A DNA stretch of 64,000 bases, from positions 159,340,001 to 159,404,000 of the forward strand of contig NC_091983.1 of the NCBI RefSeq assembly GCF_044704955.1. Direction: 5' to 3'. Every line of letters starts with the position of its first letter. The stretch's first letter is position 1. The stretch comes from Pristiophorus japonicus (Eukaryota). The translations under genes and the position numbers were made by a program. The notes beneath the pieces were generated by a model, which saw nothing but the letters and a program-made list of their open reading frames with translations, did not search any database and was not told the DNA's origin. Of this stretch, positions 33,299 through 54,618 are shown in pieces.

Positions 33299-36200
33299 TG
33301 TTATATCTGTGGACTTGTATTTACTCTGTTAAGCCACCAGAGGGCTCTTCCCCTGGAGTCCCAAGGGATCCCATAATCCCTTGGGAGCACAGGTATTTAA
33401 GGAGGCTTCACAGGTTGGAGAGGCACTGTGGAGACCTGCACTAAAGGACTAAGGTCATACTTACTTTGAGCTCACAGTGTTCAGTCTGACTCTTTCTCCA
33501 TACATAACAACTGGCGATGAGATACAGATAGCGAACCCAAAGATGCATAGATACATGCAGTGGGCATCCTGGAGAAATTTTCGGAGGGAGATGATTGGGA
33601 AACTTTTGTGGAGTGACTTGACCAATACTTTGTGGCCAATGAGCTAGATGGGGAAGAGAGCGCTGCCAAACGAAGGGTGATCCTCCTCACCGTCTGTGGG
33701 ACACCAACGTATGGCCTCATGAAGAATCTGCTCACTCCAGCGAAACCCACGGAAAAATCTTATGACAATTTGTGTACACTGGTCCGAGAGCATTTGAACC
33801 TGAGGGAAAGCGATCTGATGGCGTTCTACAAAAGGTCTGAAGGCCAGGAAGTGGCGAGTTATGTCGCCGAGCTGAGACGCCTTGCAGGACATTGCGAATT
33901 TGAAGGACATTTGGAGCACATGCTCAGAGACTTTTTTGTACTTGGCATTGGCCACGAAACGATACTTCTCAAACTTTTGACTGTAGAGGCCCCAACCTTG
34001 AGTAGGGCAATAGCGATAGCCCAGGCGTTCATTGCCACCAGTGACAATACGAAGCAAATCTCTCAGCACACAAGTGCTGCTACAACTATTGTGAACAAAG
34101 TGATGTTGTTTTTGAATTGTAACGTGCAGGGCAGGTCACATATACCCGCAGCTGCACGTCCGCAGATGACTCAGAATCCACCATCAAGGGTGATAAATGC
34201 AAGGCCATTAACACCTTGTTGGCACTGCGGGGGTAATCATCGTTTCCATTCATGCCGTTTCAAAGAGTACGTTTGCAAGGGCTGTGGAACAATGGGACAC
34301 CTCCAACGAGTGTGCAGGTGAGCTGCTAAGCCTTCTAAACCTGCAAACCACCATGTTGCAGAGGAGGACAGATCCACGGAGAACCACGACGAACAAGAGC
34401 CTCAGATAGAGGAGGCAGAGGTACATGGGGTGCACACATTCACCATGAATTGTCCCCCGATAATGCTGAATATTGAACTAAACGGACTCCTGGTCTCAAT
34501 GGAGCTGGACACGGGTGCGAGCCAGTCCATCATGGGCAAAAAGACTTTTGAAAGGTTGTGGTGCAACAAGGCCTCAAGGCCAGTCTTAACTCCAGTTCGC
34601 ACGAAACTAAGAACTTACACGAAAGAACTAATTCCTGTAATCGGCAGTGCTACCGTAAAGGTCTCCTATGATGGAGCGGTGCACTCTGGGTGGTACCGGG
34701 TGATGGTCCCACACCGCTCGGCAGGAGCTGGCTGGGAAAGATACGCTGGAACTGGAATGACGTCCGAGCGCTATCGCCCGCTAACGACACTTCGTGTGCC
34801 CAGGTCTTAAACAAATTTCCTTTGCTGTTCGAACCAGGCATTGGGAAATTCCAAGGAGCAAAAGTGCAGATCCATCTAATCCCGTGAGTGCGACCCATCC
34901 ATCAAAGGGTGAGAGCAGTACCGTACATGATGAGAGAAAGGGTAGAGATCAAGCTAGACTGGCTGCAATGAGAGGGTATCATTTCACCGATCGAGTTCAG
35001 CGAGTGGGCCAATCCTATTGTCCCAGTCCTCAAGGGAGATGGCACCATCAGAATCTGTGGTGATTACAAAGTAACTATCAATCGTTTCTCCCTGCAGGAC
35101 CAATACCCACTACCAAAGACCGATGACCTCTTTGCAACGCTGGCGGGAGGAAAGACGTTCACGAAGCTGGATCTGACTTCAGCCTACATGACGCAGGAAC
35201 TGGAGGAATCATCGAACGCCCTCACTTGCATCAACACGTACAAGGGTCTTTTTGTTTATAACAGATGCCCATTTGGAAGCCGACCAGTGGTGGCGATATT
35301 CCAGAGAAACATGGAAAGTTTGATAAAGTCAGTCCCGCACAACGTGGTCTTCCAGGACGACATCTTGGTCACAGGTCGGAACACAGTCGAGCATCTGCAG
35401 AACTTGGAGGAGGTTCTTAGTCGACCCAACCGCGTGGGGCTCAGGTTAAAACACTTGAAGTGCATTTTCCTGGCACCTGAAGTGGAGTTCTTGGGAAGGA
35501 AGATTGCGGCGGATGGCATCAGGCCCACCAACGTGAAGACGGAGGCAATCGAGAACGCACCGAGGCACTGAACGTGACGGAGCTGCAGCCGTTTCTGGGA
35601 CTCCTCAACTACTTTGGTAACTTCTTACCGGGTCTCAGCACACTGCTAGAACCACTACATGTCTTACTATGAAAAGGAGGCGAATGGGTTTAGGGCAAAA
35701 GCCAAGAAAATGCCTTTGAAAATTGTTATGCTCAAACAAATTGCTTGTGTTGTATGATCCATGTAAACGTTTGGTACTAGCATGTGATGCATCGTCATAT
35801 GGCATCGAATATGTATTGCAACAAGCTAATGATTTCAGGAAACTGCAACCGGTTGCTTATGCATCCAGGAGTCTGTCTAAGGTTGAGAGAGCCTACAGCA
35901 TGATTGAAAAAGAAGCGTTAGCATGTGTCTGTGGGGTAAAGAAAATGCATCAATACCTGTTTGGGCTAAAATTCGAATTGGAAACTGACCATAAGCCACT
36001 TATATCCCTGTTTTCCGAGAGTAAAGGGATTAATACCAAAGCATCGGCCCGCAACCAGAGATGGGCGCTCACATTTTTTTTTTTTTTTTTTTTTAATTAA
36101 ATTCGTAGCCAATCGTTTCCAATTCTTTGTCAAGTCACAAACGCCAGAGGTCACCCTGCACCAGTCAAGGATCACTCTGCGCCAATGCTCTTAGCCAAAA

Positions 36201-38136
36201 GGCCTAGAGCCACTGCACCGTTCCTGGAAGTACTGCAATACCAGGTTCGTGCCATGGAGGTGGATGGGTCAGGTCCCCCACACACCTCCGTGGAGGTGGA
36301 TGGGTCAAGCCATCCCACCCACCTCCTGTTTACAAAAATGTAAGCATATACCTTCCTGACCAGGGAGAAACCACCCGGAAGTCATGGTGGCTGGTCAGGT
36401 TAGTTATGCAGATCTTAGCCAAAAGGCCTCACATTGTCCACATACAACTATGCCATCTGCCACAGGCCAGGCACAGAAAACTGCGCCGATGCTCTCAGTC
36501 GGCTTCCATTGCCCACCACTGGGGTGGAAATGGCACAGTCTGCAGATCTAGCCATGGTTATGGAAGCACTTGAGAGTGAGCAATCACCCGTCACTGCCCG
36601 GCAGATCAAAACCTGGACAAGCCAGGACCCCTTATTATGTCTAGTCAAAAGTTGTGTGCTTCACGGGAGCTGGTCCAGTGTCCCAGTGGAAATGCAGGAA
36701 GAGATAAAGCCGTTCCAGCGGTGCAAAGATGAAATGTCTATACAGGCAGACTGCCTTCTGTGCGGCAATCGAGTAGTGATCCCCAAGAAAGGCAGAGACA
36801 TCTTCATCAATGACCTCCACAGTACCCACCCAGACATCGTAATGATGAAAGCGATAGCCAGATCCCATGTGTGGTGGCCCGGTATCGATGCGGACTTAGA
36901 GTCCTGTGTTCACAGATGTAATACATGCTCGCAGTTAAGCAATGTACTCAGGGAGGCGCCGCTAAGTTTATGGTCTTGGCCCTCCAAACCGTGGTTTAGG
37001 GTACACGTCGACTGTGCAGGCCCGTTCTTGGGTAAAATGTTCCTTGTGGTTGTAGACGCGTACTCCAAGTGGATTGAATGTGAGAAAATGTTGGCTAGCA
37101 CGTCCGCTGCCACTACTGAAAGCCTGCGGGCTATGTTTGCCACACACGGCTTACCCGATGTCCTGGTGAGCGACAACGGGCCACGTTTTACCAGTACTCC
37201 AAGTGGATTGAGTGAGCTGAGTTCAAAGAATTCATGACCCGTAACAGGATCAAACATGACACATCTGGCCGGTTTAAACCAGCGTCCAAAGGTCAGGCAG
37301 AGAGAGCAGTACAAACCATCAAGCAAGGCTTGAAGAGGGTAACTAAAGGCTCACTGCAGACTCGCCTATCCCGAGTCCTGCTTAGCTACTACATGAGACC
37401 CCACTCACTCACTGGGATCCCACCTGCTGAACTGCTTATGAAAAGAGCACTTAAGACAAAGTTCTCGTTAGTCCACCCTGATCTACATGAACAGGTAGAG
37501 AGCAAGCGGCTTCAACAAAGTGCATACCATGACAACGCAAATGTATCACAAGATTGACCTGTATTTGTTTTATATTATGTCTTGGCCAAAGAGGGAAGCA
37601 GGCTATTTCAGGTCAAACTTTCAAATGGACTCATTCACCGGAAACACTTGGACCAAATCAAACTCAGATTTACGGACTACCCTGAGCAACCCACCTAGGA
37701 CCCTACCTTTTTTGATCCCCCAACATACACACCAGTGGCAACCGGCACCATGGTTGACCATGAAGAAGAACCCATCATCCACAGCAGCCCTGCAGGGCCC
37801 AACACACCAGGCAGCCCAGCAAGGCCAGCTGCACAGCAGCCCAGCGAGGGCCCACCAAATGATTCAACAACACCAGCTTTCACACCGAGACGATCAACCA
37901 GGGCAAGAAGGGCCCCAGGTCGACTCACATTGTAAATAGTTACACTATTGACTTTGGGAGGCAGTGTTGTTATATATATGGACTTGTATTTACTCTGTAT
38001 AGTCACTTGGGAACACAGGTATTTAAGGAGGCTTCACAGGTTGGAAAGGCACTCTGGTGACCTGCAATAAAAGACTATGGTCACATTTTACTTTGAGCTC
38101 ATAGTGTTCAGTCTGACTCTTTCTCCATACACAACA
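33299..38136 (+). mobile_element. Gypsy (Mag-like) LTR element E4, full length but decayed
   Basis: LTRs 33299-33509 and 37968-38136 (the latter with a ~40-bp deletion), PBS TGGCGATGAG, gag-PR-RT(FQDD)-RH-IN remnants, degenerate TSD CAAGG/CAGAG. Confidence 0.94.
36076..36428 (-). mobile_element. U2 snRNA-derived poly(A) retroposon (candidate SINEU)
   Basis: TSD CTCACATT (36068-36075, 36428-36435) and a 21-nt T run. Contains the U2 5' segment GGCCTTTTGGCTAAGATC, Sm site ATTTTTG, two SL-III-like hairpins, SL IV ACCTGGTATTGCAGTACTTCCAGGAACGGTGCA and a second U2 head. Absent from the paralogous site in E5 (~44620). Confidence 0.88.
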
Positions 38137-44200: not shown

Positions 44201-47069
44201 ACTGTTAGAACCACTTCATGTCTTACTATGAAAAGGGGATGAATGGGTTTGGGGCAAAAGCCAAGAAAATGTCTTTGTAAAAGCGAGAAAATTGTTATGC
44301 CCAAACAAATTGCTTGTGTTGTATGATCCACATAAGCATTTGGTACTAGCATGTGATGCGTTGTCATATGGCGCTGGGTGTGTATTGCAACAAACTAATG
44401 ATTTCGGGAAACTGCAACTGGTTGCTTATGCATCCAGAAGTCTGTCTAAGGCTGAGAAAGCCTACAGCATGATTGAGAAAGAAGGGGTAAAGAAAATGCA
44501 TCAATACTTGTTTGGGCTAAAATTCGAATTGGATCTGACCATAAGCCACTCATATCCCTGTTTTCCGAGAGCAAAGGAATCAATACTAACGCATCGGCCC
44601 GCATCCAGAGATGGGCGCTCACGTTGTCCGCATACAACTACGCCATCCGCCACAGGCCAGGTACAGAAAACTGCGCCGATGCTCTCAGTAGGCTGCCATT
44701 GCCACCATGGGTGTGGAAATGATGCAGCCCGCAGATTTAGCTATGGTTATGGAAGCATTTGAGAGTGAGCAATCACCCGTCACTGCCCGGCAGATCAAAA
44801 CCTGGACAAGCCAGGACCCCTTATTATCCCTAGTCTAAAGCTGTGTGCTTCACGGGATCTGGTCCAGTATCCCAGTGGAAATGCAGGAAGAGATAAAGCC
44901 GTTCCAGCGGCGTAAAGATGAAATGTCTATACAGGCAGACTGTCTTCTGTGAGGCAATCGAGTAGTGGTTCCCAAGAAGGGCAGAGACACCGTCATCAAT
45001 GACCTCCACAGTACCCACCCAGGCATCGTAATGATGAAAGCAATAGCCAGCTCCCACGTGTGGTGGCCCAGTATCGATGTGGACTTAGAGTCCTGCGTTC
45101 ACAGATGTAATACATGCTTGCAGTTAAGCAATGTACCCAGGGAGGCGCCGCTAAGTTTATGGTCTTGGCCCTCCAAACCGTGGTCTAGGGTACACGTCGC
45201 CTATGCAGGCCCGTTCTTGGGTAAAATGTTCCTTGTGGTTGCAGACGCGTACTCCAAGTGGATTGAATGTGAGATAATGTTGGTGAGCACGTCCGCTGCC
45301 ACTACTGAAAGCCTGCCGGCCATGTTTGCCACACACAGCTTACCCGATGTCCTGGTGAGCGACAACAGGCCACGTTTTACCAGTGCTGAGTTCAAAGAAT
45401 TCATGACCCGTAATGGGATCAAACATGTCAAATCTGCCCCGTTTAAACCAGCGTCCAATGGTCAGGCAGAGAGAACAGTGCAAACCATCAAGCAAGGCTT
45501 GAAGAGGGTAACTGAGGGCTCACTGCAGACTCGCCTATCCCGAGTCTGGCTTAGCTACCGCATGAGACCCCACTCGCTCACCTGGATCCCACCTGCTGAA
45601 CTGCTCATGAAAAGAGCACTCAAGACAAGGCTCTCGTTAGTTCACCCTTATCCACATGAACAGGTAGAGAGCAGGCGGCTTCAATAAAGTGCATACCATG
45701 ATAGCGCAAATGTGTCACGCGAGATTGAAATCAATGATCCTGTATTTGTGTTGGATTATGGACAAAGTCCCAAGTGGCCTCCCGGCACTGTCGTGGCCAA
45801 AGAGGGAAGCAGGGTGTTTCGGGTCAAACTTTCAAATGGACTCATTCACCGGAAACACTTGGACCAATCAAACTCAGATTCCCGGACTATCCTGAGCAAC
45901 CCACCTTGGACCCTATCTTTTTTGATCCCCCAACATACACACCAGTGACAACCGGCAGCACGGTTGACCACGAAGCAGAACCCATCATCCACAGCAGCCC
46001 AGCAGGATCCAACACACCAGGCAGCCCAGTAAGGCCAGCTGCACAGCAACTCAGCGAGGGCCCAACAAATGATCCAACAACACCAGCTTTCACACCGAGA
46101 TGATCAACCAGGGCAAGAAGGGCCCCAGATCGACTCACATTGTAAATAGTTACACTAGTGACTTTGGCGGGGCGGGGCAGGGGGGGGCGGGGGCGAGTGT
46201 TGTTATATATGTAAACTTGTATTTAATCTGTACAGCCACCAGAGGGCTCATCCCCTGGAGTCCCAAGGAATCTCATAATCCCTTGGGAGCACAGGTATTT
46301 AAGGAGGCCTCACAGGTTGGAGAGGCATTGTGGAGTAAAGGACTAAGGTCACACTTTACTTTGAGCTCACAGTATTCAGTCTGACTCTTTCTCCATACAT
46401 AACAGGTGGTATGCAGGTACAGCAAGTGATCAGGAAGGCCAATGGTTATTGCAAAGGGGATGGAGTATAAAAGCAGGGAAGTCTTGCTACAGCTATATAA
46501 GGTATTGGTGAGGCCACACCTGGAATACTGCTTGCAGTTTTGGTTTCCATATTTACAAAAGGATATACTTGCTTTGGAGGCAGTTCAGAGAAGGTTCATT
46601 GGGTTGATTCCAGGGATGGGGGGGTTGATTTATGAGGAAGGATTGAGTAGGTTGGGCCTCTACTCATTGGAATTCAGAAGAATGAGAGGTGATCTTATCG
46701 AAACATATAAGATTATGAGGGGGTTTATGACAAGGTGGATGCAGAGAGGTTGTTTCCACTGATGGGTGAGGCTAGAACTAGAGGACATGATCTTAGAATA
46801 AGGGGCCGCCCATTTAAAACAGAGATGATGAGAAATTACTTCTCTCAGAGGGTTGTAAATCTGTGGAATTCACTGTGGAAGCTGGGACATTGAATAACTT
46901 TAAGACAGAAATAGACAGTTTCTTAAACGATAAGGGGATAAAGGGTTATGGGGAGCGGGCGGGGAAGTGAAGCTGAGTCCATGATCAGATCAGCCATGAC
47001 CTTATTGAATGACGGAGCAGGCTCAAGGGGCCATATGGCCTACTCCTGATCCTATTTCTTATGTTCTTA
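41274..47069 (+). mobile_element. CR1 subfamily A, 5'-truncated, split by E5
   Basis: Pieces 41274-41837 and 46405-47069, with RT motifs and a TTCTTATG tail. Confidence 0.93.
41838..46404 (+). mobile_element. Gypsy (Mag-like) LTR element E5, same family as E4
   Basis: LTRs 41838-42049 and 46201-46404, TSD GGTAG/GGTGG, PBS TGGCGATGAG, ORF remnants 42252-42869, 42978-44021 and 44965-45687. Confidence 0.95.
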
Positions 47070-50745: not shown

Positions 50746-51267
50746 GTGTGTACTTTGCAATAATCACTCTTGATATAGCAACACAAGGCTTTTACTGATA
50801 AGAGAAGTTATGATTTTCCCCATTTTTGCTGCAGATGGTGGATTGTTTGTGTGTGAAGGCCAAAGAAAGGATAACAGTTAGGTTGCATAATATGGAAGAA
50901 ACATAAGACAACTGACATGAAAAAGTCAGCATCTAGGTACCCTAAATGGAATGAAACCAAAATTCTATAACATGTGTATTCCTCTTAGCCATCATTAGTC
51001 TGCAGCTTTTAAAATAGAAGCTATGCAGCAATCCTCTGTAATACAATAGGCCACTTAAAATGGTATAGAATGTAACAGGATTCCTGCAATTAACACCATT
51101 TTCCCATACAGCTCACATTATATAATCAGGCCCTAATGGAAAATTTCAAATATTTCTTTGAGGGTATTTTGTGTATTTTTTGATGAGGGAGTGGAGGATA
51201 TAGTTGGTGAGTGATCGGGGAGGGTGGGGGCGGGCGGGGGGGGGGGATGTGGGGGAGGAGGGGGGAG

Positions 51268-52187
51268 GGTTGTAATGGTGAATGGCTGTTCGGGGCGATT
51301 GTAATGGTGAATGGCTGTTCGAGATGATTGTAATGGTGAATGGCTGTTCGGGGCGATTGTAATGGTGAATGGCTGTTCGGGGCGATTGTAATGGTGAATG
51401 GCTGTTCGGGGCGATTGTAATGGTGAATGGCTGTTCGGGGTGATTGTAATGGTGAATGGCTGTTCGGGGCGATTGTAATGGTGAATGGCTGTTCGGAGCG
51501 ATTGTAATGGTGAATGGCTGTTCGGGGCGATTGTAATGGTGAATGGCTGTTCGGGGCGATTGTAATGGTGAATGGCTGTTCGGGGTGATTGTAATGGTGA
51601 ATGGCTGCTCGGGGCGATTGTAATGGTGAATGGCTGCTCGGGGCGATTGTAATGGTGAATGGCTGCTCGGGGCGATTGTAATGGTGAATGGCTGTTCGGG
51701 GCGATTGTAATGGTGAATGGCTGCTTGGGGCGATTGTAATGGTGAATGGCTGCTCGGGGCGATTGTAATGGTGAATGGCTGTTCGGGGCGATTGTAATGG
51801 TGAATGGCTGCTCGGGGCGATTGTAATGGTGAATGGCTGTTCGGGGCGATTGTAATGGTGAATGGCTGCTCGGGGCCATTGTAATGGTGAATGGCTGTTC
51901 GGGGTATTTGTAATGGTGAATGGCTGCTCGGGGCAATTGTAATGGTGAATGGCTGTTCGGGGCGATTGTAATGGTGAATGGCTGTTCGGGGCGATTGTAA
52001 TGATGAATGGCTACTCGGGGTGATTGTAATGGTGAATGGCTGTTTGGGGTGATTGTAATGGTGAATGGCTGCTCGGGGTGATTGTAATGGTGAATGGCTG
52101 CTCGGGGCGATTGTAATGGTGAATGGCTGTTCGGGGTGATTGTAATGGTGAATGGCTGTTCGGGGTGATTGTAATGGTGAATGGCTG
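51268..52187. repeat. 29-bp minisatellite, ~32 copies
   Basis: Unit GATTGTAATGGTGAATGGCTG(T/C)TCGGGG(C/T), with no spacers. Confidence 0.97.
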
Positions 52188-54618
52188 GGCACACTAATAC
52201 AGCACTACTGCTTCATTTCAAAATCCACTTTTAATATCAGCAGCTGTAGCACCAGAATAACAGTATCAGCCGTGTCATCACAGAGCTATCAGGCAAGCCT
52301 CCTTTATTGAGGAAATATGAACAAGTATGGACAGATGTAGATGAGCAGAGTGTAGTGTCGATCATTTCAGAAATAAACAATAAATTAATGGGTCCATTAA
52401 TCACCATCAAAACTGTATCTGTGGTGATGATAGCCAAAGAGAGCTTATCTGACTTTGACTGGCCATAAACCTGTCCTGAATGTAATGCAATTACCATCCT
52501 GTCTGCATCTGGGGCACTTCTGGGGTGATTTTTGATGAAATTAAGTAGACAAGTCATTCAAGCGTATAATGGATACCTAAATCATAACAAACGTGCAAAA
52601 ACAAAACATTACTAAAATGAGACAATTTAAAAGAAACTGGCAATGGAAGGAATGAAACTGCTTCTGTTATTCTTTAATTTTCACTTTTTGTAAAATCCAA
52701 CACATTTATTTACTTGCAGTATTTAGATTTGCTATTGGTTGTTTTACTAATCGAATAAATATGATACTGTGTAGATTTAAATGAACTATTATACATGTGT
52801 CTTGACTCATCAGAAATCAAATCAGCCCTCCCTCCAGCAATGCAGCTGAGGACTGGACTATATATTAAATATTGTGGTATGTTTTGTTTAATCAACCGAA
52901 CTTTATCAGGCAACACAGTGCAGCACAACCCTCTACCTGTAATTGCATCACCTCTGTGATTGTCTTACCTGTTACAGATTTATGAGCTGTACACTTTAAC
53001 AGTGACAAGTGAAAGTAAAATTATTTTAATAGCAACCATTTTATTTTTGCTCTTAAATGTTTCCATTAAATTATATTCTTAAATGAGCTTGAGCAGCAAC
53101 TATATATCCCAGCTACTCACTGTTTGGTTCACTCAGCTTTAAAATCCCCACGAATTACACAATGTTCCTGGCAAATGTGTACTTGTGAACACACTATTAA
53201 AAAAAGCTAGCATGAAGACAAAACAGCCAATAAACAAAATATAGTATTATGATGTTGGCAATTTAATTATTTATTAAGGACTTAAAGAAGCCAATAATGA
53301 CATGTATACTGGCCACTAAAACCAATAATTTTAAGGGCCGAGTGCCAGTACCATTATGTTCTCCTGACTATTATGACCACATCACTGTCCTTCTGCCGGT
53401 ACTAAGGAGCTTGGCCCTGTTTACAAAATGCCTCAGGGTGAAGAAAGCTGCCATTCAGGGGACTGTGCCTGCAGGCTGCCTCATTCTACCTGACATCCGT
53501 TTGCAGATGGGCCGTTCCCCAGGTAGGCCTGGCAAAGCTCTTTCCATTAATCATTGCTTAAACCATTCTCAAAGGAAAGACCTCAGGTTAGTCATCATTT
53601 GAAAGCAAATTGGGTGAAAAATAGTGCTGGCAATCAGGAGGTTGTGTTGTAATCCCCTGTGAGACCAGTGCAAATGCAAAAACCAGACTCTTCCTTGCAA
53701 GCAAGTAATCTGTCAGTCACTGAACGACATCATAATCCAGTTTAATATAATAACAAACAATACAAATTACAACTTGTTTGACTTCCCTTGTCCTTTGATT
53801 TATTTTGCTTTGAAATGTAGTGAGCCAAGGGACTATATAAAAGAGAAAAAAGTGATTTATACAAATTTATAGAATTGAGAAACACTACTTAATGAAGCCA
53901 ATATGATTAAATCTGGAACGTTTGGATTTCTGGTATTTGTATTGAGAAGACTGTTTGGTTTGATTATAATCAGTCAGAATTCTTAATCAGAAAATTATAG
54001 CTCATTTACTGCATCCTTTTTGTCAATAGAAGCTCCAACTAGTTAGCAGGCAGGTTAAAAATCAAGGAGCAAAACCTCTAGGAATAAAGTTATAATAGTA
54101 ATGACATTTACCCTTTAAGGACTGTAATAGGATTATTGTACCTTGATACCCAAGATATTACAAGTTCAGACCCTTCATTTGTTTCTTCCAAATCTGTTCC
54201 ATGTCATTCATAGTTTGTTGTCCAGAAACCATTGCCATTTTTATTCTATTCTTTTAGAAATTAATCATTGGAAAATGTTTGATCTTCGCACATTAAATAA
54301 GATCTTCCTTAAATGCTACTGATTGGGTTATAGATGACTGTTGTTGATTTGCATTGCAGTCTCAAAGGAAAGACCTCAGTTTGTACTATTGAACAACAGG
54401 ACAATGTTGTAAAACATCATGGTTTTGAATGGTAATAGAATCCTGGGATGTGTCAAATGTATGTTAATTATTTGTAATATATAAGGCTAGAAATGACAAT
54501 TGGTGATATTAGCAGATGAATGGTTAATGCATTCCGATGCCATTGTTTAACAGGTGCTAACACATTTTTTTAATTGGGTTCATGCCTTTGCAAAAATACC
54601 AGGAGAGGAATATCATAT

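Follow-up and report, generated by a model that had tools for sequence, protein, structure and literature searches.

Short interspersed elements (SINEs) headed by small nuclear RNA (snRNA) sequence have been described from crocodilians as SINEU-1 to SINEU-3, and that study reports none outside crocodilians (Kojima 2015, PMC4494074). Transcription by RNA polymerase III (Pol III) is judged unlikely in the same study, and how these SINEs are transcribed is left open there (PMC4494074). Here we describe an element of this kind in Pristiophorus japonicus, found in a 64,000-nucleotide stretch of contig NC_091983.1 (positions 159,340,001 to 159,404,000, RefSeq assembly GCF_044704955.1; hereafter the window). 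The insert spans positions 36068-36435 and lies on the minus strand of a gypsy-type pol gene. It belongs to a young retroposon family made up of U2 and U1 snRNA pieces and is truncated at its 5' end. The family has target-site duplications (TSDs) and a poly(A) tail, some of its copies lie directly behind U2 promoters, and it shares a target site with a long interspersed element (LINE). The family is likely copied by this LINE, which is of the Keno type, and likely transcribed from U2 promoters that it has captured, a joint reading to which we give a probability of roughly 0.72.

Anatomy of the Insert

An initial annotation, made from the letters of the window only, had described a retroposon of rearranged U2 modules that was absent from a sister element. 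Aligned with the sister long terminal repeat (LTR) element copy near 44617, the insert does appear as one 360-nt gap, and its features lie where they had been placed. The insertion point falls inside the RNase H-to-integrase part of the host pol (Pfam RVT_1, RT_RNaseH, Integrase_H2C2, rve). A reverse transcriptase (RT) of the window has its best named protein matches in sharks and rays at 74-85% identity, against about 44-55% in birds and turtles. The features are as follows.

34972-37237, plus strand: host gypsy-type LTR retrotransposon pol (RT to integrase, by Pfam), with the insertion point a genome-wide hotspot for the family
36068-36075, plus strand: TSD, left copy CTCACATT, its final bases overlapping the poly(A)
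36074-36094, minus strand: poly(A) tail of 21 A, a T-run on the forward strand
36095-36185, minus strand: family-specific 3' tail, with no significant match to the 3' untranslated region (UTR) of the partner LINE
36186-36208, minus strand: second U2 head, U2 nt 7-29, 21 of 23 identical
36213-36251, minus strand: U2 stem-loop (SL) IV with loop AUUGCAGU, by Rfam, alignment and folding
36256-36289, minus strand: U2 SL III derivative, second (duplicated) copy
36292-36326, minus strand: U2 SL III derivative with a 13-bp stem
36333-36339, minus strand: Sm-site core AUUUUUG, U2-derived
36355-36404, minus strand: derivative of U1 snRNA nt 3-57 (5' end and SL I), refolded into a longer hairpin with an altered loop
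36411-36428, minus strand: U2 head, U2 nt 11-28, with nt 1-10 missing in the window copy
36428-36435, plus strand: TSD, right copy CTCACATT

The full-length element found elsewhere in the genome has the order U2 nt 1-28, the derivative of U1 nt 3-57, the U2 Sm site, SL III, the duplicate SL III, SL IV, the second U2 head, an 88-nt tail and poly(A). Its head is identical to nt 1-28 of the genome's own U2 at 28 of 28 positions, and U2 nt 29 to about 95 are absent. The functional labels of the snRNA modules are those of the textbooks; SL IV is presumably the U2B''-binding module, and the deleted segment is the one that we take to hold the branch-point-pairing sequence and stem-loop IIa. Since the branch-point-pairing region is deleted, the element cannot work as U2.

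Module identities were tested against the U2 and U1 genes of the same genome, with shuffled sequences as controls. In the case of each U2 module, 0 of 2000 shuffles reach the alignment score against the U2 gene, which bears out the Sm site, the two SL III-like hairpins, SL IV and the second head as they had been proposed. The 'non-U2 domain' of the initial annotation is, on the other hand, no novelty but a derivative of U1 nt 3-57: 2 of 2000 shuffles reach the score of the window subfamily, and for two older copies 0 of 5000 do, one of which, from an older subfamily, is identical to U1 in 44 of 55 columns. This module was detected only through the genome's own U1 gene and not by the Rfam search alone. 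Rfam does find the expected U2 match, at 36208-36437 on the minus strand, but its 29.3 bits (E=0.0012) lie under the gathering score of 46. Rfam also gives a prion-pseudoknot match, likewise under its gathering score, which we ascribe to chance similarity with the duplicated, GC-rich hairpin.

Other parts of the initial annotation need adjusting. The poly(A) stands as 21 A. The TSD is a true repeat, but its length is 6-8 bp rather than 8, depending on how the bases common to the poly(A) and the head are assigned. The segment 36428-36411 is U2 but not the true 5' end, as full-length copies start at U2 +1. The insert has a U1 module, a duplicated SL III, a second head and a tail of its own and is indeed no plain U2 pseudogene, and the suggestion of a variant snRNA falls with the loss of U2 nt 29 to about 95. 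On a separate point, window positions 36399-36405 (minus strand) hold the altered U1 5' end of the young subfamilies, at the place of the lost branch-point-pairing sequence. It resembles the branch-point consensus, probably by chance, and could pair with U2.

A Young Retroposon Family

The window's own assembly (5.92 Gb, 4,318 contigs) was searched with the insert, which gave 1,851 candidates; the 40 best hits that were scored lie on many chromosomes and show 99-100% identity across about 331 nt. An exact tail 21-mer common to all subfamilies occurs in at least 5,713 copies and an exact head-region 24-mer in at least 462, both of them lower bounds, and the reversed-pattern controls gave 0. The Rfam candidate counts (224,200 for U2 and 128,409 for U1) are rough and are not used as copy numbers. 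The insert thus belongs to a multicopy family, as the initial annotation had supposed in proposing a SINEU-type element. The element is about 310-350 nt long. Among 65 head-bearing copies every 5' end lies within nt 1-16, with 17 exactly at nt 1, that is, at U2 +1. An exact abutting TSD of 6-20 bp flanks 32 of the 65, and none was found by the strict test in the rest. At least 12 of the first 30 loci hold additional tandem copies, often with the same TSD between them. Read by eye, the flanks inspected show no evident shared upstream extension.

Four subfamilies, A to D, can be distinguished among 111 head-bearing copies and in the alignment. Subfamily A is that of the window copy; subfamily B, about 95% identical to it, has a different tail end; in subfamily C the U2 head runs to nt 38, which is the insertion site itself; and subfamily D is nearest to U1. 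There is also an older relative, about 240 nt long, that consists of a nearly full but diverged U2, a second U2 head, a short related tail and poly(A). It is stacked in tandem at the U2 site and has been invaded by younger subfamilies (G000:C9:111016087-111016600; L078, L114, L123, L135, L260). The likely history is that a full U2 was set before a U2-headed tail, that U1 SL I then replaced the middle of U2, and that SL III was duplicated last. Such shared architecture bears on another explanation, in which there is no source element and each copy is an independent chimeric retrocopy, formed by template switching that joins U2 and U1 to another RNA. Reverse transcription is known to jump templates onto snRNAs (PMC4494074; PMC3414825), but the copies have the same junctions, SL III duplication and tail, which refutes this explanation and leaves it practically no probability.

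A simple pattern search found no A or B box in the element, which has three T4-T5 runs (T4, T5 and T4), and Pol III transcription is therefore unlikely. One subfamily D copy (L081:1290-1360) has a short run of hexamer-like repeats that grew out of the 3' arm of its SL III. Recurrent targets other than those treated below include one position in a common repeat tail, hit by three copies (L008, L022, L023), and one position in another repeat, hit by two (L083, L111). The former tail resembles that of shark HE1/HER1.

Copies inside U2 Genes

The most important result is one that the initial annotation could not have seen from its stretch of sequence: copies of the element lie inside U2 genes, behind the U2 promoter. 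The genome has two types of U2 gene with different promoters, one in tandem units of about 760 bp with a microsatellite spacer and the other in genes about 20 kb apart within larger repeats (G000:C1003, C9). In the first U2 locus fetched, the U2 upstream region is followed by the element at +1, then by poly(A), then by U2 from nt 38, all in the place of the next array unit. Seventeen copies follow the promoter of the tandem array, and 199-200 of the 200 bases upstream of them match an intact gene; one stands behind the second promoter type, and one further copy lies at a contig edge. The array stretches read contain 192 promoter-headed units, comprising 163 uninterrupted U2 genes, 17 with the element and 12 with the LINE. 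At about 9% of the array U2 units read, the element is a load on an essential gene family. One array end (G000:C19:69620001-69730000) is almost saturated, the 17 promoter-headed units read there being 11 Keno-type LINE, 5 element and 1 intact. At this same array end (L068-L071, L214-L220, L290), the U2-like heads of earlier LINE copies have themselves become targets of LINE insertion.

Genome-wide, all 37 junctions of poly(A) to U2 nt 38-62 lie in U2 clusters. They comprise 20 insertions of subfamily B, one of D, one of the older relative with full U2, 13 of the LINE and 2 of a sister LINE, so that 22 family members and 15 LINE or sister-LINE copies have inserted at the same U2 base, nt 38/39, with at least four distinct variants among them. 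If some 6,000 insertions fell at random in 5.9 Gb, the number expected at this base would be far below one. Four more copies occupy the same U2 site inside older U2-containing relatives. Carry-over of U2 nt 38-62 into the 3' ends of dispersed copies was looked for among these junctions and none was found. Also rejected was the idea that replacing U2 nt 29-95 made the element immune to the LINE, as one array copy has itself received a LINE insertion at element nt 38-40 (L264).

The promoter-linked copies split their U2 genes, and their internal poly(A) ranges from about 17 to more than 70 nt. In 5 of the 17 array copies, the five checked, the 40 downstream bases are unchanged, and the predicted RNA is 516-556 nt long. 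An array-specific variant occurs 18 times, of which 16 are in arrays and 2 are dispersed with 0 mismatches, one of the latter with a clear 12-bp TSD. This distribution fits arrays as sources, and copies behind U2 promoters would be the simplest source of RNAs that start at U2 +1.

The promoter-linked copies could alternatively be a U2/U1 hybrid snRNA gene used by the host, with the dispersed copies as its processed pseudogenes. Copies with a promoter and an intact downstream 3' signal do exist, and the Sm core is retained together with SL III and SL IV, with stems varying less than loops. Nevertheless, these copies are insertions that split a U2 gene at the LINE's own site and have a poly(A) inside. 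The branch-point-pairing region has been lost, both the 5' end and the loop of the U1 part have changed, and subfamily turnover is rapid. A host-used gene is accordingly very improbable.

The Candidate Partner LINE and the Gypsy Hotspot

The U2 arrays also hold a 5.7-kb LINE that is the candidate partner. Open reading frame (ORF) 1 encodes 581 amino acids with a CCHC knuckle and ORF2 encodes 1147 amino acids with an APE endonuclease and an RT (Pfam Exo_endo_phos and RVT_1), and the frames are open in several copies. The nearest named relatives of its RT are amphibian and fish RTs at 39-49% identity, one of them labelled TX1. In 13 copies the 3' flank of the LINE starts at U2 nt 38/39. Keno, which has an APE endonuclease, and Utopia are described as having the same 3' U2 flank, starting at nt 39 (PMC4640811); we call the LINE Keno-type for this shared flank and not by an RT tree. 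Like the element, it bears a U2 head that merges with the 5' end of the gene. Of its exact 3' ends, 375 in number, the majority lie dispersed in the genome. One intact copy in a U2 array (G000:C1003:17628-23458) is preceded by U2 nt 1-53 and a short unrelated stretch, after which comes its own U2 nt 1-44 head. The 3' ends of at least one sister Tx1 family were also seen (G000:C9:113549256 and 113669932, L261 and L262; L115, L161, L162), and two sister-Tx1 3' ends are located at the U2 site of internally deleted U2 copies.

A second meeting point of element and LINE is the gypsy pol position occupied in the window. This position is a hotspot with 41 poly(A) insertions; 30 were read, and 29 of these are family members and 1 is a Keno-related 3' end. 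The hotspot flanks have a median identity of 88% and a maximum of 95%, and so represent separate insertions. A single insertion hitch-hiking on an amplifying gypsy element was rejected, as none of the 378 flank pairs aligned over at least 100 nt (of 435) reaches 97%.

The initial annotation had proposed mobilisation by an L1/Tx1-type LINE that might share the tail at 36095-36185. A Tx1-type LINE does share the target site, but not this tail: 734 of 1000 shuffles reach the score of the element tail against the LINE 3' UTR, which amounts to no homology. The same result removes the possibility that the insert is simply the 3' UTR of this U2-targeting LINE. A tail derived from the sister-LINE 3' UTR or from anywhere in the whole LINE (55 of 200 shuffles) was rejected as well, and a weak likeness of the second head and tail to the LINE 5' UTR (20-33 of 2000 shuffles, among several tests) was not accepted. 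In the absence of tail homology between element and LINE, recognition is likely through the poly(A), a relaxed mode attributed to L1 (PMC3747384).

RNA Structure and the Sm Site

Structural elements of the RNA appear to have been kept. The U1-derived hairpin folds in every subfamily tested (z -4.5 to -6.7 against base shuffles) despite rebuilt pairing, and the block from the Sm site to SL IV folds at z -3.2 to -6.7. The 3' tail had been described as unique and hairpin-forming, and it remains unique in that no LINE match was accepted, but its fold is no better than shuffles (z -0.21). A search pattern for SL III matched in 143 of 152 copy contexts, with recurring changes mainly in the loop and the 13-bp stem staying paired; the pattern itself fixed part of the stem, 20 of the matches are the second hairpin with one mismatch, and the copies are related. 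Conserved stems beside variable loops suggest selection on RNA structure, as had been proposed. The Sm core AU5G is present in 87 of the 119 copies read, and in the other 32 a C precedes the U-run.

Truncated copies give a further clue. Sixty loci not selected for length were surveyed and 56 copies scored, with a tail pattern that omitted the older relative and variant tails. In 37 copies the 5' start lies at nt 1-18 and in 16 it lies 4-28 nt past the first U of the Sm-site U-run; of the remainder, 2 start at +34 (one at a window edge), 1 starts in between and 0 start in the next 110 nt 3'. Among other loci (93 entries), 10 truncated copies start at +7 to +39 of the same U-run. No such pile-up is seen at the stronger SL III and SL IV hairpins or at the U4 run of the second head. 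Reverse transcription blocked by a bound Sm ring would explain why 5' ends gather just 3' of the Sm site, and this would favour the idea that the RNA is packaged as a small nuclear ribonucleoprotein (snRNP). Alternatively, the pile-up may come from instability of the rU:dA hybrid at the U-run or from the U1 hairpin that lies just upstream. The same cut-off is seen in D-type copies with the non-canonical Sm site. Packaging of the element RNA in an snRNP is best regarded as a tentative lead, more doubtful than probable.

A Proposed Life Cycle

The observations can be joined in a cycle in which the LINE would nick a U2 gene at nt 38/39 and reverse transcription of the element RNA would begin at its poly(A). 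The U2 nt 1-28 head of the cDNA could then anneal to the 5' end of the gene, giving a seamless junction that places the element at U2 +1. The subfamily C head, which ends at nt 38, the insertion site, fits a renewal of heads at U2 genes. For R2 elements with 5' target sequence, seamless 5' junctions have been postulated, and those of the U2-gene copies match them (PMC3774820). The external U2 promoter, acting through RNA polymerase II (Pol II), would next yield an RNA of about 520-560 nt comprising element, poly(A), U2 nt 38-191 and the intact downstream 3' signal, again with the U2 head first. Most new copies would land off target, in the gypsy pol hotspot, in other repeats or in the poly(A) of earlier copies, and would have no promoter; the few that hit U2 genes would renew the pool of sources. 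The Sm site and hairpins likely let the RNA pass as an snRNA, which is the step with the least support. A fuller version, in which the whole life cycle runs through the snRNA pathway (U2-gene re-insertion, snRNA-type transcription and capping, Sm loading, and an Sm-ring footprint in truncated copies), is possible but on balance doubtful.

Several points weigh against promoter capture and copying by the Keno-type LINE. Promoter use is deduced from position alone. Sequence identity cannot give the direction between the array copies and the two identical dispersed copies, and recombination within arrays may have multiplied a single insertion, or a small number of them, into the 16 array copies. 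Subfamily A was found neither under either U2 promoter nor at intact U2 sites, all 18 promoter-linked copies being of subfamily B; arrays collapsed in the assembly, or the loss of source copies, may account for this. As regards the LINE, the element tail has no homology to its 3' UTR, sister Tx1 families in the genome make for several partner candidates, and a T directly follows the poly(A) in 25 of 29 element copies against 13 of 30 LINE copies (position-ordered samples). Finally, it is the older subfamilies that carry the non-canonical Sm site with C before the U-run.

Some of these points would suit a model with the same family and kind of partner LINE but with sources that use other flanking promoters or read-through from the LINE or host, the U2-gene copies being silent by-products of the LINE's preference for its target. 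Transcription of this sort was proposed for crocodilian SINEU-2, and 5' extensions from flanks are reported (PMC4494074). In this assembly the youngest subfamily, A, has no promoter-linked copy, and copies are found directly behind LINE poly(A) tails (2 of 30 LINE ends) as well as in the tandem runs. However, 5' ends pile up at exactly U2 +1 and 0 of 65 copies start beyond nt 16, the flanks inspected by eye reveal no evident shared upstream extension, and the two dispersed copies are identical to the array variant, all of which makes the model rather unlikely.

Alternatively, a different poly(A)-recognising L1/Tx1 family could move the element, with U2 genes reached through U2 homology or gene conversion. 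No tail is shared, U2 genes hold about 20 of the more than 5,700 copies, the two samples disagree in the first target base and sister Tx1 3' ends exist. Against this, 22 of 22 U2-site copies share the LINE's 3' junction base, 10 nt past the U2 homology of the head, a base that gene conversion would not choose. Same-site insertions are also found inside older U2-containing copies, and the sole non-family insert among the 30 read at the gypsy hotspot is Keno-related. Another LINE as the mover is thus improbable, and capture of U2 promoters with the help of the Keno-type LINE is the reading we prefer.

If this reading is true, a SINE can persist without an internal promoter by capturing one through a site-specific LINE, which would explain the precise U2 heads of such elements and suggests that snRNA-headed SINEs arise repeatedly where Keno-type LINEs are active. 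In this genome the family is very young, the candidate partner LINEs are intact and candidate sources are placed exactly at the U2 start, so that the question of transcription can be put to a direct test. The genome may preserve, in the pile-up of truncations at the Sm site, a trace of what binds the RNA during reverse transcription. Elsewhere in the window, positions 51118-52300 hold a tandem array of about 40 copies of a 29-bp unit that are 92-96% alike.

Comparison With Known Systems

The literature covered contains no snRNA-headed SINE in cartilaginous fish and no SINE behind U2 promoters; most subscription journals, Repbase and Dfam were outside this coverage, and a catalogue entry may exist. 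Judged by testable features, the element is SINEU-type, outside crocodilians. It has an snRNA-derived head, a non-coding body of less than 500 bp with poly(A), junctions shared among copies, oligo-T without a Pol III promoter, and a target shared with a Tx1-type LINE. Other classes do not accommodate it. It lacks U2 nt 29 to about 95 and is no functional or variant U2; it departs from a collinear U2 copy, as a U2 processed pseudogene would be, through its U1 module, the doubled SL III, the second head and the unique tail; no tRNA, 7SL or 5S head with internal promoter, as in classical Pol III SINEs, was found by Rfam or pattern search; and it has no accepted homology to the LINE that would make it a fragment of a U2-targeting LINE.

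Like HE1 and other tRNA-headed shark SINEs, the element is a short multicopy retroposon of the shark and ray type (PMC3747384). HE1-type SINEs, however, have tRNA heads and CR1-type partners with shared tails, whereas the element has no tRNA head and no A or B box (PMC3747384). The short internally deleted elements (SIDEs) of R2 are internal LINE deletions with a ribozyme, confined to 28S ribosomal DNA (PMC3774820, PMC3414825). Unlike them, the element consists of snRNA modules and has no match to its LINE; most of its copies are dispersed, and its promoter would be that of an snRNA gene read by Pol II. The LINE resembles Keno and Utopia in its U2 3' junction at nt 38/39, and its APE endonuclease is as in Keno (PMC4640811, PMC4494074). 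The element itself differs from Keno and Utopia in that it encodes nothing and has no LINE tail, and would thus be a passenger and not a LINE fragment.

The closest likeness is to crocodilian SINEU. Both have serial U1 and U2 head pieces, a length under 500 bp, poly(A), inner oligo-T and no internal promoter (PMC4494074). Both show TSDs or none, tandem insertions, a Tx1-type partner inferred from a shared target, and no LINE-derived tail (PMC4494074). The U2-U1-U2 order recalls SINEU-1C/H and the internally deleted U2 recalls SINEU-3 (PMC4494074). In contrast to the crocodilian families, the host is a cartilaginous fish, and the recurrent targets seen are U2 genes and a position in gypsy pol, where the crocodilian families prefer Mariner-N4 (Mariner-N4_AMi) (PMC4494074). 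By their description, these families stand apart from the element, whose origin was probably independent of theirs. It further differs from them in having candidate sources behind real U2 promoters and an intact candidate partner LINE.

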